Positions 599 through 4,385 of a stretch of DNA of 64,000 bases are shown here, in pieces. Made by a program: the position numbers and the translations under genes. The notes beneath the pieces are model-generated. The model worked only from the letters and a program-made list of their open reading frames with translations. It did no database searches and was not told where the DNA came from. Numbering within the stretch: position 1 is the stretch's first letter; each line of letters starts with the position of its first letter. The stretch comes from a virus (Duplodnaviria > Heunggongvirae > Uroviricota > Caudoviricetes). Location of the stretch: positions 102,640 to 166,639 of the IMG/VR virus record IMGVR_UViG_3300025838_000019; one strand, given 5' to 3'.

Positions 599-652
599 AG
601 GATACTTGCAGCAAGCAAAAAACTTTTTATTGGAAAAAAGAAAAGGTATCCT
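599..652 (+). ncRNA. Stem-closed spacer module A (AGG-N4...N4-CCT family)
   Basis: AGGATAC (599-605) pairs with GTATCCT (646-652); flanks TTTTT-AGG and CCT-GTTG shared with modules B, C, D; internal GCAGCAAGCAAAA motif. Confidence 0.4.
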
Positions 653-663
653 GTTGATTTTAT

Positions 664-740
664 CCGTGTGTAGCGCAGTCTGGTAGCGCATCTGGTTTGG
701 GACCAGAGGGTCGCAGGTTCGAATCCTGCTACACGGACCA
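664..740 (+). tRNA. tRNA-Pro (anticodon TGG)
   Basis: Acceptor CCGTGTG/TACACGG, D-arm GCGC-AGTCTGGTA-GCGC, anticodon arm TCTGG-TTTGGGA-CCAGA, T-arm GCAGGTTCGAATCCTGC, CCA encoded. Confidence 0.85.
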
Positions 741-792
741 AATGATTTCGCCTTGACTGATGGCGTACAATGAGATAAGTAATCAGTTATAT

Positions 793-867
793 GGGGGCAG
801 CAGTGGGCTGCGGTTCTCCCTTGCAAGGAGAATGTCTAGAAGGATTCGATTTCCTCGGCCTCCACCA
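793..867 (+). tRNA. tRNA-Ala (anticodon TGC), atypical D-arm
   Basis: Anticodon arm TCTCC-CTTGCAA-GGAGA; acceptor with a G3:U70 wobble (Ala identity element); T-arm and CCA in canonical positions; D-arm non-standard and 7:66 mismatched. Confidence 0.6.
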
Positions 868-872
868 TATAA

Positions 873-985
873 AAACATTCTGAGTGACTACAGCGGATAA
901 ACAGTAAACTTGCAAATGTCGACCAATGCAAGAACCTGCCGTGAAGTAGGGTCACCATGAGATTCAAGGACTCGGCAGAGTGTTT
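873..985 (+). ncRNA. Stem-closed spacer module E (AAACATTCT...AGARTGTTT family)
   Basis: AAACATTCTG (873-882) pairs with CAGAGTGTTT (976-985) allowing one GU pair; homologous to module F, sharing an internal GAGATT(C/A)AAG block and the downstream flank TGTTTCTATATGG before the next tRNA. Confidence 0.4.
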
Positions 986-991
986 CTATAT

Positions 992-1067
992 GGTTCAGTA
1001 GCAAAGCGACTAATGCAGCATCTTCATACGGTGCCTATCGTGAGTTTGAGTCTCACCTGAACCACCA
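992..1067 (+). tRNA. tRNA-Met or Ile2 (anticodon CAT), elongator type
   Basis: 76 nt with standard numbering; acceptor GGTTCAG/CTGAACC, anticodon arm GCATC-TTCATAC-GGTGC, T-arm GTGAGTTTGAGTCTCAC, CCA encoded. Confidence 0.8.
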
Positions 1068-1073
1068 AATAAT

Positions 1074-1150
1074 GCGCTCGTAGCACAACTGGAGAGTGTT
1101 CCGTCCTACGAAGTCGTGAGGTGGGGGTTCGAATCCCTCCGAGCGCACCA
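1074..1150 (+). tRNA. tRNA-Arg (anticodon ambiguous, ACG or CCT by alternative loop registers)
   Basis: Acceptor GCGCTCG/CGAGCGC, D-arm and T-arm (GGGGGTTCGAATCCCTC) clear, CCA encoded; anticodon stem imperfect in both registers, both give Arg. Confidence 0.55.
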
Positions 1151-1155
1151 TATAT

Positions 1156-1229
1156 ACCCCGATAGCTCAATGGCAGAGCCCACGACTGATAATCGTGTGA
1201 CCCAAGTTCGATTCTTGGTCAGGGTACCA
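1156..1229 (+). tRNA. tRNA-Ile (anticodon GAT)
   Basis: D-arm GCTC-AATGGCA-GAGC, anticodon arm CACGA-CTGATAA-TCGTG, T-arm CCAAGTTCGATTCTTGG, CCA encoded; one C-A mismatch in acceptor. Confidence 0.85.
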
Positions 1230-1234
1230 GATTT

Positions 1235-1296
1235 AGGATAGTAACAGCAAAAATTATACATTAGACTTTTAATCTAAACCGTAAAAATTCTATCCT
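1235..1296 (+). ncRNA. Stem-closed spacer module B (AGG-N4...N4-CCT family)
   Basis: AGGATAG (1235-1241) pairs with CTATCCT (1290-1296); internal AACAGCAAAAA motif and an anticodon-arm-like hairpin TTAGA-CTTTTAA-TCTAA. Confidence 0.4.
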
Positions 1297-1305
1297 GTTG
1301 TTTAT

Positions 1306-1379
1306 ATCTCGTTGGTGTAATGGTAGCACAAGAAACTCCAAATCTCTTGGCGGGAGTTCGATTCTCTCACGGGATACCA
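1306..1379 (+). tRNA. tRNA-Trp (anticodon CCA)
   Basis: Acceptor ATCTCGT/ACGGGAT, loop CTCCAAA, T-arm GGGAGTTCGATTCTCTC, CCA encoded. Confidence 0.8.
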
Positions 1380-1391
1380 TAAAAAAGAAAG

Positions 1392-2845: not shown

Positions 2846-2853
2846 CCTATAAT

Positions 2854-2927
2854 GCTCTTATCGTATAGTGACATTACACATCCTTGGTACGGATGTTACC
2901 CAAGTTTGATTCTTGGTGGGAGCACCA
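2854..2927 (+). tRNA. tRNA-Thr (anticodon GGT)
   Basis: Acceptor GCTCTTA/TGGGAGC (two GU pairs), anticodon arm CATCC-TTGGTAC-GGATG, T-arm CCAAGTTTGATTCTTGG, CCA encoded. Confidence 0.8.
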
Positions 2928-3098
2928 ATTGTTTTAATTCGGTAGGCACAAATTCAGCGGCTTGCCTTTTAGCGTAAGATGGTGTAAACTCTCTTACTGT
3001 TGTAGAGAATTTAGATTCTTTGTATGGTGGTGCTTTGGCAAATTCCCAAAGATGTGGTTCTGCGGATTTAAGTGTCATGATACAAAGTATTTATTTTT

Positions 3099-3175
3099 GC
3101 CCCGGTGACGGAATTGGTATACGTGTTGGTCTTAGAAACCAAATTTTAGGAGTTCGAGTCTCCTCTGGGGCACCA
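3099..3175 (+). tRNA. Type-I tRNA (short variable loop) with Leu anticodon TAG; isotype uncertain
   Basis: Acceptor GCCCCGG/CTGGGGC, anticodon arm TTGGT-CTTAGAA-ACCAA (perfect), 5-nt variable loop ATTTT, T-arm AGGAGTTCGAGTCTCCT, discriminator A, CCA encoded. Confidence 0.6.
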
Positions 3176-3181
3176 AACATT

Positions 3182-3256
3182 CTGGCGTTAGTATAATGGA
3201 TAATACAGTAGGCTTCTACCCTTCTGATGGGAGTTCGATTCTCTCACGCCGGACCA
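3182..3256 (+). tRNA. tRNA-Arg (anticodon TCT)
   Basis: Acceptor CTGGCGT/ACGCCGG, D-arm GTAT-AATGGATA-ATAC, loop CTTCTAC, T-arm GGGAGTTCGATTCTCTC, CCA encoded. Confidence 0.8.
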
Positions 3257-3311
3257 AAAAGTGTAAACCATTATGTACAAAATGATGGTTTTGTAAAGAA
3301 TAGGAAACATT

Positions 3312-3929
3312 ATGCCAGCAGTATTTCTTGTAAGTGATACACACTTTGGCCATGCCGGTGTATGTCGTTTCACCGATTCAAACACAGGTGAAAAAATTCG
3401 ACCATGGACTGATCCTGCTGAAATGGATGAGGAAATGGTAAAGCGTTGGAACGAAACAGTTCGACCAAATGACAAAGTATATCACCTTGGTGATGTAGTG
3501 ATTAACCGTAAAGCACTTTCAATTATGAGTAGACTTAACGGTGACAAGGTTCTTATCCGTGGTAACCACGATATTTTCCGTGATGAAGAATATAGACAAT
3601 ACTTCCGTGAGCTTCGTGCTTATCATGTAATGAACGGAATGATTCTTTCACATATTCCTATTCATCCGGATAGTCTTGGTCGCTTTGGTACTAACATTCA
3701 TGGACATCTCCACACAGGTCGTGTGATGAAAACGGTAAAACGTGAAAAGGTTAGTAAATATGATCCACGTCCATTTACGGTTGAAGAACCGGAAATTGAC
3801 ACTAGGTATCATTGTGTTTGCGTTGAACAAACAGACTTTAGACCTATCCTTTTTGAGGATGTTATCAAACGAATCAAAGAAGAAGGTGGTCAAGTTGGTT
3901 TTCAAAACGGAAACGGACCAACAATGTAA
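3312..3929 (+). CDS. Calcineurin-like metallophosphoesterase (205 aa)
   Basis: N-terminal SDTHFGH and later GNHD motifs typical of the metallophosphatase superfamily; RBS AGGAAA upstream. Confidence 0.7.
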   Translation: MPAVFLVSDTHFGHAGVCRFTDSNTGEKIRPWTDPAEMDEEMVKRWNETVRPNDKVYHLGDVVINRKALSIMSRLNGDKVLIRGNHDIFRDEEYRQYFRELRAYHVMNGMILSHIPIHPDSLGRFGTNIHGHLHTGRVMKTVKREKVSKYDPRPFTVEEPEIDTRYHCVCVEQTDFRPILFEDVIKRIKEEGGQVGFQNGNGPTM

Positions 3930-3931
3930 GT

Positions 3932-4008
3932 GCGGGTATAGGCCAATTGGTAGAGTCAACAGACTTAAACCCTGTGTAGTGTCGGTTCGAATCCGTCTAC
4001 CCGCACCA
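3932..4008 (+). tRNA. Type-I tRNA (short variable loop) with Leu anticodon TAA; isotype uncertain; paralog of 2452-2528
   Basis: Acceptor GCGGGTA/TACCCGC, D-loop AATTGGTAG, anticodon arm ACAGA-CTTAAAC-CCTGT, variable loop GTAGTG, T-loop GGTTCGAATCC, discriminator A, CCA encoded. Confidence 0.6.
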
Positions 4009-4049
4009 CTTGCCAAAGGTTTGAAAATGATATATAATAGACACAAATT

Positions 4050-4123
4050 GCGGGATTAGTTTAATGGTCAAACGAAACCTTGCCAAGGTTTAGTTAAGAG
4101 TTCGATTCTCTTATCCCGCTCCA
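4050..4123 (+). tRNA. tRNA-Gly (anticodon GCC)
   Basis: Acceptor GCGGGAT/ATCCCGC perfect, D-arm GTTT-AATGGTCA-AAAC, anticodon arm AAACC-TTGCCAA-GGTTT, T-arm AAGAGTTCGATTCTCTT, discriminator T, CCA encoded. Confidence 0.85.
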
Positions 4124-4127
4124 AATA

Positions 4128-4201
4128 GCCCTTATCGTATAGTGGTATTACCGCGGATTTGTAACCCGCTTACAGGAGTTCGATTCTTCTTGGGGGCACC
4201 A
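4128..4201 (+). tRNA. tRNA-Thr (anticodon TGT)
   Basis: Acceptor GCCCTTA/TGGGGGC, loop TTTGTAA on stem GCGG/CCGC, T-arm AGGAGTTCGATTCTTCT, CCA encoded. Confidence 0.75.
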
Positions 4202-4228
4202 AACTGTGGCATATTTACAACATGTCGC

Positions 4229-4257
4229 TTGACTCTACAAATTTTTTGTGATACAAT
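4229..4257 (+). promoter_or_regulatory. Sigma70-like promoter TTGACT-N17-TGTGATACAAT
   Basis: Consensus-like hexamers with extended -10; would transcribe modules D, D2 and the vWA/TROVE-like gene. Confidence 0.5.
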
Positions 4258-4291
4258 AACATCTTGTTATGAAACATTGAAGAAAGTTTTT

Positions 4292-4385
4292 AGGTAAGGT
4301 TCAGCAACAAAAATTTTCGGATCATATCCGAGCCCGTCTGTGAGTTTCGATTTCTCACTTTAATCAAAAAGTAGAAAACTTACCT
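4292..4385 (+). ncRNA. Stem-closed spacer module D (AGG-N4...N4-CCT family) with T-arm-like hairpin
   Basis: AGGTAAG (4292-4298) pairs with CTTACCT (4379-4385); interior GTTCAGCAACAAAAA motif and GTGAG-TTTCGATTT-CTCAC hairpin; downstream of sigma70-like promoter at 4229. Confidence 0.4.

Follow-up and report, generated by a model that had tools for sequence, protein, structure and literature searches.

The DNA under study is a 64,000-nt stretch of a phage genome of the Caudoviricetes (positions 102,640 to 166,639 of the IMG/VR record IMGVR_UViG_3300025838_000019), referred to here at its full length as the window. Near its beginning an array of tRNA genes leads into a gene for a Ro60-like protein (domains DUF2828 and vWA), and two more tRNA genes lie past this gene (6094-6326). 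Five copies of a short module, M1 to M5, are set into this region (Table 1). Each is closed by a helix that joins its two ends and carries the hexamer CAGCAA shortly after the 5' arm. M1, M2 and M3 are embedded in the tRNA array, with gaps of 4-10 nt to the neighboring tRNAs, and M5 ends 6 nt ahead of the Shine-Dalgarno sequence (4571-4577) of the Ro-like gene. All five lie 21-3987 nt upstream of this gene and on the same strand. Judging from the sequence, M4, M5 and the Ro-like gene could form a single transcription unit behind a sigma-70-like promoter match, which is a consensus match only, the count of such sites in the region not exceeding the expectation from shuffling. A nucleotide search of isolated phages with window positions 1-7000 matched the tRNA-Pro alone, so that close relatives of this phage are lacking among cultured phages; its gp43 polymerase and those of cyanomyoviruses share 49% identity.

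Table 1. Location of the modules and of associated features. The first eight rows give window coordinates; elsewhere coordinates are those of the locus named (L numbers).
Feature	Location	Strand	Description
tRNA array	262..4201	+	19 ARAGORN tRNAs and one Rfam-only tRNA at 2622-2693
M1	598..653	+	56 nt; stem 598-605/646-653 (U.G + AGGAUAC/GUAUCCU); CAGCAA 609-614; interior an A/U hairpin, then an A-rich 3' linker; flanked by tRNA-Asn and tRNA-Pro
M2	1234..1297	+	64 nt; closing stem 1234-1241/1290-1297; CAGCAA 1245-1250; interior an anticodon-stem-loop mimic 1261-1277 with loop CUUUUAA at 1266-1272; between tRNA-Ile and tRNA-Trp
M3	2347..2444	+	98 nt; closing stem 2347-2353/2438-2444; CAGCAA 2357-2362; interior a tRNA-like cloverleaf with D-like hairpin 2375-2387, anticodon-like arm 2390-2406 (loop CUUAUAA) and T-like arm 2411-2427 (loop UUCAAUU); between tRNA-Phe and tRNA-Leu
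M4	4291..4386	+	96 nt; closing stem 4291-4298/4379-4386; CAGCAA 4302-4307; interior a hairpin 4316-4332, a T-arm-like hairpin 4340-4358 (loop UUUCGAUUU) and a conserved 3' element AAUCAAAAAGUAGAAAA
M5	4395..4564	+	170 nt; stem 4395-4402/4557-4564 (UUGGAUGA/UCAUCCAG); CAGCAA 4406-4411
Sigma-70-like promoter match	4229..4257	+	TTGACT-17-TACAAT with upstream TG; 10/12 positions agree
Ro60-like gene	4585..6024	+	helical-repeat ring domain DUF2828 and vWA domain DUF7788; proposed module partner
Cyanophage BUCT-ZZ01 (L081) modules	5651-5828, ~5836-5905, 5907-5982		upstream of the gene
KVP40 (L082) modules	353-565, 2595-2841, 5966-6005		last one overlaps the start codon of the gene
Felixounavirus wV8 (L083) modules	7719-8493		four copies
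Campylobacter NCTC12673 (L085) modules	4825-4887, 4896-4973		gene at 4995
Listeria LP-125 (L086) modules	4664-4927		three copies; gene at 5001
Mycobacteriophage Whirlwind (L087) modules	6483-6739		three copies; gene end 6440
Cronobacter S13 (L088) module	7154-7288		
Staphylococcus S-CoN_Ph4 (L207) modules	5532-5739		three copies; gene end 5512
Bacillus MrDarsey (L208) modules	2241-3914		five copies; gene at 4007
Enterococcus EA1 (L209) modules	3400-3835		three copies; gene at 3956
RF01414 matches	M1; L014 5924-5980; L023 1411-1467; L070 3427-3483; L075 904-959		26.1; 34.7; 33.2; 24.2; 23.3 bits, in this order

Anatomy and covariation of the modules

A preliminary description of this DNA had singled out four spacers that begin with TTTAGG and end with CCTGTTG, and whose variable arms remain complementary. 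The pattern AGG-N4, followed by the reverse complement of N4 and CCT, is indeed exact on the + strand at 599-652, 1235-1296, 2347-2444 and 4292-4385, with the N4 pairs ATAC/GTAT, ATAG/CTAT, ATCG/CGAT and TAAG/CTTA. The outer letters do not extend to the third copy, which has TTTAAGG and CCTGTTA. The helix, put at 7 bp, is real and usually has 8 bp, a flanking U.G pair being present in three of these four copies and in 128/140 members of the family described below. A fifth copy had been overlooked: M5, with the layout UUGGAUGA-auu-CAGCAA...UCAUCCAG-uu, repeats the design of the other four. The internal motif thought to be shared, TTCAGCAA(A/C)CAAAA, is not common to the copies, which instead have CAGCAA 3 nt past the 5' arm (at 609, 1245, 2357 and 4302). 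Minimum free energy (MFE) folds keep the closing helix in all five copies, with z-scores of -1.9 to -3.7 (M1, -2.56; M4, -2.62; M5, -3.65 at -43.9 kcal/mol). The view that these are not simple terminators stands: a scan for intrinsic terminators called none of the closing stems and met no canonical terminator hairpin, and the stems are A/U-rich and enclose 40-155 nt. That no T-tracts follow is not strictly correct, given that the 3' flank is U-rich, frequently with GUUGUUUU, and that a T7 run comes after the copy at 4292-4385.

The module is found again in some 230 related loci from metagenomic phages. In the 80 IMG/VR loci taken because they hold relatives of open reading frame 4585-6024 at 71-92% identity, 181 family-like modules lie on the strand of the gene and 3 on the opposite strand. 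The consensus reads UUUU-AGG-N4, N3, CAGCAA, a variable interior and N4'-CCU-GUUR, with 41 distinct stem sequences. CAGCAA is invariant and unpaired, 2-3 nt past the 5' arm, and an A-rich linker stands ahead of the 3' arm; extension of the helix by the 3-nt spacer occurs in some copies only and is not conserved. Among candidates chosen by their anchors alone (TT[TA]-N7-N3-CAGCAA, then the first downstream CTGTT; n = 215), all five free stem positions are paired in 185 (86%), compared with 10.6% (22.7 expected) for shuffled partners. Over 140 sequences, 91.5% of the cells of the closing stem are paired, against 73.9 ± 0.8% in shuffles and 30-54% in slid-register controls. Double-sided changes occur in 5 of the 8 pairs, and cells with a double change number 190, against 51.5 ± 5.5 in shuffles; in neither measure did any of 500 shuffles come as high. 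Complementarity is thus conserved among the homologous spacers of related phages beyond what shuffling yields, and the conserved RNA helix that had been deduced from compensatory changes in four copies is confirmed. The opposition then drawn between such a helix and a protein-binding sequence is a false one, since the invariant unpaired CAGCAA beside the helix resembles an element for recognition by a protein, like that of Y RNAs.

A covariance model (R1) was built from 90 short modules of the T4-like clade, none of them from the window; its E-values are rough. In the window it retrieves M2 (66.4 bits, E 1e-15), M1 (62.1 bits, E 1.7e-14), M4 (32.4 bits) and M3 (28.0 bits), and beyond these nothing below E = 0.1 over the 64 kb. 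M5 gives a partial match only (13.4 bits) and has orthologues in matching position in three related loci (L006 2336-2534, L007 5385-5589 and L013 3332-3506). At gathering thresholds, Rfam 15 finds only tRNAs in the window, and in E-value mode no ribozyme, riboswitch or known small RNA on the modules. There is no Rfam 15 entry for the RNA family, and no description of it was found in the searchable literature; it is widespread in phages and apparently undescribed so far. A look-alike on the minus strand (29141-29409, TTTTAGGTACT...AGTACCTGTTGT) imitates the stem together with its two flanks, yet runs antisense across two coding open reading frames; without CAGCAA and unseen by R1, it is probably a chance occurrence.

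The interiors are variable and frequently resemble parts of tRNAs. In 165 unique short modules (51-70 nt), a 5-bp hairpin with a 7-nt loop is present in 62% (6.8% in shuffles) and the anticodon-loop form Y-U-NNN-R-N in 42% (0.5% in shuffles). The loop positions are biased accordingly (C32 63%, U33 82%, A37 85%, A38 82%), with triplets that are mainly UGU, UUU and UCU. This inner hairpin was not a selection criterion, and it is 81% paired, with double-sided changes in all five pairs; that of M2 likewise shows compensatory changes among orthologues. RNAalifold recovers only the closing stem from mixed short modules, because the inner hairpins are out of register. M3 and 16 orthologues share the closing stem and the D-, anticodon- and T-like arms, 15 of 21 pairs covarying. 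The Rfam tRNA model (RF00005) scores 26 bits on the M3 interior (2371-2431) and 17.2 on M2, both below the cut-off of 29. ARAGORN calls no tRNA on any module of the window, and calls one M3-class orthologue tRNA-Arg(UCU) (L213 587-659). Among long modules (>70 nt) a T-loop-like hairpin occurs in 44%; that of M4 is common to its orthologues of 94-185 nt and shows compensatory changes. Anticodon nucleases include PrrC and PARIS. The C-U-U-N-U-A-A loops of the modules are like those of tRNA-Lys, tRNA-Thr and tRNA-Arg, which we take to be the ones attacked by anticodon nucleases; this is a lead rather than a result.

It can be stated with very high confidence that the modules are functional structured RNAs. 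The tRNA-derived interiors, the call of an M3-class orthologue as tRNA-Arg(UCU) and a copy number that differs among genomes would also suit decaying tRNA pseudogenes or selfish repeats of tRNA arrays, devoid of function. Four separate helices, however, are upheld by compensatory changes, CAGCAA is invariant in phages of at least five bacterial phyla, and the strand bias is strict. Because of the covariation, this origin is very unlikely.

The Ro60-like gene and its linkage to the modules

The product of 4585-6024 matches PF11443 (3.6e-20) and PF25043 (3.6e-43), as well as the PHROG family phrog_850 ('RNA-binding protein'). Its MIDAS (metal ion-dependent adhesion site) motif DxSxS is invariant (D281, S283 and S285). 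Searches of PDB and NCBIfam with the protein sequence gave no match, and the likeness to Ro60 is therefore seen by fold search alone. With an AlphaFold2 model derived from 31 homologues, the best eight Foldseek matches in the PDB are all Ro60, Rsr or TROVE structures (2nvo, 9kop, 1yvr, 2i91, 1yvp, 9nen, 9nep; E 4e-7 to 2e-5). The Ro60 alignments are full-length, and isolated vWA domains come next (E ~6e-3). DUF2828 homologues occur in 702 phage-collection records, including Felix O1, KVP40 and Listeria LP-125 types, and in hundreds of metagenomic relatives; those of mycobacteriophages carry the annotation 'Ro-like RNA binding protein'.

In Bas63, gp130 is Ro60-like by structure, is encoded just upstream of the tRNA genes of the phage and counters the ppl defense system; the authors merely speculate that some of the tRNA genes are Y RNAs (PMC11482910). 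We infer that gp130 belongs to the DUF2828 family, and gp047 of phage wV8 has the matching arrangement, just upstream of tRNA genes. The Ro-like gp53 of LeBron is toxic if expressed alone (PMC13148394).

The Ro-like gene lies near tRNA genes of the same strand in every lineage examined, often directly beside them. Modules with stem and CAGCAA are found on the strand of the gene in 10 of 11 distant lineages, and most of them adjoin it (Table 1); in wV8 and Cronobacter S13 they are inside the tRNA array that adjoins the gene. The phages concerned infect Proteobacteria, Campylobacter, Cyanobacteria, Firmicutes and Mycobacterium. R1 recovers members in 8 of the 10 module-bearing lineages (23.7-51.2 bits, all on the gene strand), with no match in KVP40 or Cronobacter S13, and it matches beside the Ro-like gene in all three contigs of metagenome-assembled genomes that carry it. 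A scan of IMG/VR that started from the RNA pattern gave 78 new loci, 28 of which include the Ro-like gene in the short stretch fetched, with modules and gene on the same strand in a ratio of 28:0. The stem bases beside CAGCAA vary by lineage (AGGAU, AGACC, AGACA, UGGAC, AAGAA, UAGGAA), and CAGCAA itself stays constant. Controls without modules are the T4 tRNA locus including rnaC and rnaD, T5 over its first 50 kb (24 tRNAs, eight stable RNAs by annotation and no Ro-like match) and a phage K locus. The abundant long non-coding RNAs of phage K (PMC9241854) were set aside as relatives, their locus having neither a DUF2828 gene nor a module.

The same arrangement can be read as punctuation in cis of a tRNA/Ro transcript. 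The modules would then be processing or insulating helices, or a translational operator before the Ro-like gene, and would give rise to no separate RNA. M1-M3 do fill tRNA-tRNA spacers with short gaps, one copy always abuts the ribosome-binding site of the Ro-like gene (in KVP40 it overlaps the start codon), and the flanks are U-rich. Yet a 7-8-bp helix around 40-150 nt is no substrate for RNase III, an invariant single-stranded CAGCAA and covarying tRNA-like interiors would be superfluous, and the tRNA arrays of T4 and T5 manage without modules. In Whirlwind and Staphylococcus phages, moreover, three copies come after the gene and have no tRNA as a neighbor, which also speaks against the processing cassettes considered in the preliminary description. 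Punctuation is thus distinctly unlikely. The other suggestion made there, stable small RNAs, remains the best reading; the context it had missed comprises the Ro-like gene downstream and the tRNA-like interiors.

In KVP40, the copy at 5966-6005 is a minimal hairpin, GACAUU-uua-CAGCAA...AAUGUC, inside which lie both the start codon and the Shine-Dalgarno sequence of the Ro-like gene; it could be an autoregulatory operator. Tiny coding sequences annotated as 'hypothetical protein' overlap CAGCAA modules, for example CDS0145 of S-CoN_Ph4 (L207 5519-5608), and are probably mis-annotated RNA genes.

Known RNA families and the proposed partner

Y RNAs of bacteria and phages are encoded at most 4 kb from the Ro60 gene on the same strand, and have a 5'-proximal motif GNCGAAN0-1G in the terminal stem and a tRNA-like domain (PMC4201824). 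In the Thermus phage phiLo, a canonical Ro60 binds two upstream RNAs, Yrl1 and Yrl2 (PMC12135203). The modules lie within this distance of a gene whose product is Ro60-like by fold only and not by the TROVE Pfam model. As in YrlA (RF02553), there are several paralogous RNAs per genome, of 55-170 nt, at most 4 kb from a ring/vWA gene and on its strand; their 5' and 3' ends are paired, a short conserved motif of the 5' strand stands beside a large internal loop, and the remaining part is a variable 'effector' that mimics tRNA. The permuted YrlA core (T-arm, acceptor-like hairpin and D-arm) is detected inside long modules of EA1 (47.8 and 35.8 bits) and Whirlwind (38.3 bits), and in close relatives of the present phage (37.5, 33.3, 30.8 and 27.3 bits), the outer Ro60-binding helices of the model being mispaired. 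A core that fits and outer helices that do not would be expected if Y RNAs had adapted to another paralogue of Ro. In contrast to YrlA, the protein encoded beside the modules is from the DUF2828 (PF11443) branch and not from TROVE (PF05731), and many modules have only 51-66 nt, with an anticodon-stem-loop mimic alone. The interiors of the window are mixed with regard to a tRNA-like domain: the covarying cloverleaf of M3 has an unpermuted D/anticodon/T order, M4 has a T-like arm only, M2 an anticodon-arm mimic only and M1 a plain A/U hairpin.

Taken together, the modules are read as small structured non-coding RNA genes, most likely Y-RNA-like partners of the phage Ro60-like (DUF2828/vWA) protein, to which we assign a probability of about 0.62. 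Taken by itself, the claim that the Ro-like protein is the partner appears probable. Several observations weigh against this. The structural model has moderate confidence (predicted local distance difference test, pLDDT, 62), with TM-scores to Ro60 of 0.41-0.53, and the protein of 4585-6024 has no TROVE match at the sequence level. The gathering score of YrlA (69) is not reached, no module of the window has a YrlA match, and the canonical Ro60 motif (GNCGAAN0-1G in bacteria, GGUCCGA in metazoa) is absent, CAGCAA being there in every member. Jumbo phage CBB has a Ro-like gene and no module within 4 kb of it. In 50 of the 78 loci found by the RNA pattern, the fetched stretch holds no Ro-like gene; because these stretches are short, such loci are uninformative rather than contrary. 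The T4-like relatives also show close linkage of the modules with tRNA arrays and with genes for metallophosphoesterase and PF04308 proteins, which makes another partner possible, and the look-alike Class I RNAs of Dictyostelium, treated below, bind an RRM protein directly (PMC7919456).

These last points lead to functional RNAs with a different partner: free decoys of tRNAs or anticodon loops, or ligands of an RRM-type, PF04308 or metallophosphoesterase protein of host or phage. The anticodon-loop signature of the short modules, the frequency of PF04308 and metallophosphoesterase neighbors in T4-like relatives, and the direct binding of Rnp1A by Class I RNAs of the same stem and CAGCAA design (PMC7919456) speak for such a partner. 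However, PF04308 and metallophosphoesterase genes are not constant neighbors and are not beside the modules in Gram-positive, mycobacterial, Campylobacter and Felix-like phages, so that across lineages the Ro-like gene alone is constantly adjacent, often within 20-120 nt. Furthermore, the lineage-specific stem bases next to CAGCAA fit co-evolution with a phage-encoded partner better than binding to a conserved host factor. A partner other than the Ro-like protein is therefore regarded as unlikely.

In the preferred reading, M1-M3 would be transcribed with the tRNAs, and M4 and M5 from the promoter-like site. Release would be by the nucleases that trim the neighboring tRNAs, the terminal helix shielding the ends. 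The helix and CAGCAA may then dock on the Ro-like ring, by analogy with the Y-RNA stem with GGUCCGA/GNCGAA on Ro60. The tRNA-like interior would recruit or distract a second factor, such as an exoribonuclease, a tRNA repair or modification enzyme or a host anticodon nuclease. The resulting ribonucleoprotein (RNP) may tune RNA surveillance or repair, or counter host defense, during infection; a role in host-phage conflict fits the action of Bas63 gp130 against ppl.

If this partnership is true, Y-RNA biology gains a second family of proteins, the DUF2828 branch. The signature by the gene (closing stem, CAGCAA and tRNA-mimic insert) is recognizable and makes the question of the RNA partner directly testable, also for Bas63 gp130, a homologue-like protein that counters a defense system and whose RNA partner is so far a matter of conjecture (PMC11482910). 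Many 'spacers' and tiny 'hypothetical ORFs' (open reading frames) of phage tRNA arrays would be explained by a family that is new to Rfam.

A second likeness is to the Class I RNAs of Dictyostelium (RF01414). All five matches of this model in phage DNA fall on short modules (23-35 bits, Table 1), none reaching the gathering score of 41.5. The RF01414 consensus is GaUcuC-CUUACAGCAA-...A-rich...-GagAuC-UG, and the D. discoideum form is GUUGAC-CUUA-CAGCAA-...-GUCAAC-UG, with a nearly invariant stem (GUUGAC). Class I RNAs have 42-65 nt, comparable to M1 and M2, and a 6-8-bp stem that joins the ends and is kept in structure rather than in sequence. An unpaired motif ending in CAGCAA directly follows the 5' arm (CCUUACAGCAA in Dictyostelium). 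In this 11-nt motif (invariant U3, C6, C9, A10 and A11) the CAGCAA part is identical in place in the modules, and its 5' part is loosely similar to theirs (UUG, UAA, GUU, AUU), which is one nucleotide shorter. Also shared are an A-rich segment on the 3' side, the conservation of a 5' G and of 3' CUG(U), many paralogues and variable interiors. CTGTT is one of the two anchors that define the modules, and a G directly follows the 3' arm in 128/140 members. Unlike the modules, Class I RNAs are eukaryotic, have dispersed genes with a DUSE promoter element, are described as confined to Dictyostelia and directly bind the RRM protein Rnp1A (PMC7919456). Class I pull-downs also contained GuaB, NdkC and the uncharacterized DDB_G0281243 (PMC7919456; bioRxiv 10.1101/2020.04.05.026054), and the last of these, from the DdR-21 pull-down, is a candidate for a Ro-like ring partner of Class I RNAs. 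Common ancestry or a common type of partner of modules and Class I RNAs is doubtful. Also rather unlikely is the bolder proposal that both form a single family, namely the Y RNAs that go with the DUF2828 branch of Ro60-like proteins, with Class I RNAs acting via a Ro-like ring and the phage RNP displaying anticodon-loop and tRNA mimics as decoys or sensors of anticodon nucleases. Should the likeness reflect common descent or partner, it would offer a mechanistic lead for an abundant class of eukaryotic non-coding RNA.

The preliminary description had also compared the spacers to species 1 and 2 of T4. In location the analogy holds: T4 species 1/2 (rnaC, rnaD) and the T5 RNAs I, III, IV, 1, 2, 3, 2H and X are non-tRNA RNAs that lie in a phage tRNA cluster and share its transcription, often with their ends paired and in some cases tRNA-like. 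As homologues they were rejected, since rnaC, rnaD and the T5 stable RNAs have neither the CAGCAA-stem signature nor a match to the family model, and no Ro-like gene occurs in the T4 tRNA locus or in T5 1-50 kb.

Further RNAs and genes of the array and of related loci

The tRNA at 2622-2693 scores 53.4 bits with Rfam and was missed by ARAGORN, and a tRNA-shaped sequence at ~791-868 (within 787-872) is called by neither program. Just before the first tRNA, and after a promoter-like site at 107-134, a perfect 18-bp helix on the + strand (134-151/243-260; TATCATTTGTTTTGCTGA / TCAGCAAAACAAATGATA) encloses ~90 nt. Its second arm holds CAGCAAAACAAA, which is near-identical to the M5 string at 4406-4417, but paired. 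Possible roles of this helix are those of an operon leader or an anti-motif. The spacers 864-994, 2526-2623, 2698-2845, ~2085-2260 and 3012-3093 have long terminal helices and no CAGCAA. Two of them share the arms CCATATA[A/C]AAACATTCT / AGA[G/A]TGTTTCTATATGG, which reach into the flanking tRNA ends. These spacers are reminiscent of the 'stable RNAs of unknown function' of T5.

Genes for a PF04308 ('RNaseH-like') protein and a calcineurin-like phosphoesterase are located within the tRNA array (1401-1883 and 3312-3929). In KVP40, a PF04308 gene (L082 7482-8012) directly follows the Ro-like gene. In other phages, the surroundings of the Ro-like gene repeatedly include metallophosphatases, RtcB, RNA ligases and CCA-adding enzymes, which suggests an RNA-repair neighborhood.

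Other structured RNAs are found in several of the related loci. Listeria LP-125 has a ROOL-like RNA (L086 3471-4022; 87.4 bits, cut-off 99.1), Enterococcus EA1 a tmRNA (L209 207-557; 145 bits) and BUCT-ZZ01 a permuted tmRNA (L081 1780-2076; 112 bits). Downstream of the Ro-like gene of BUCT-ZZ01 (L081 ~7590-7830), two tRNA genes have an identical insert of ~40 nt (AACGCATTCTGTAAAGAATGAATTCTGCAATC), the Rfam tRNA spanning 114 nt (7711-7824); these tRNAs may be intron-containing.

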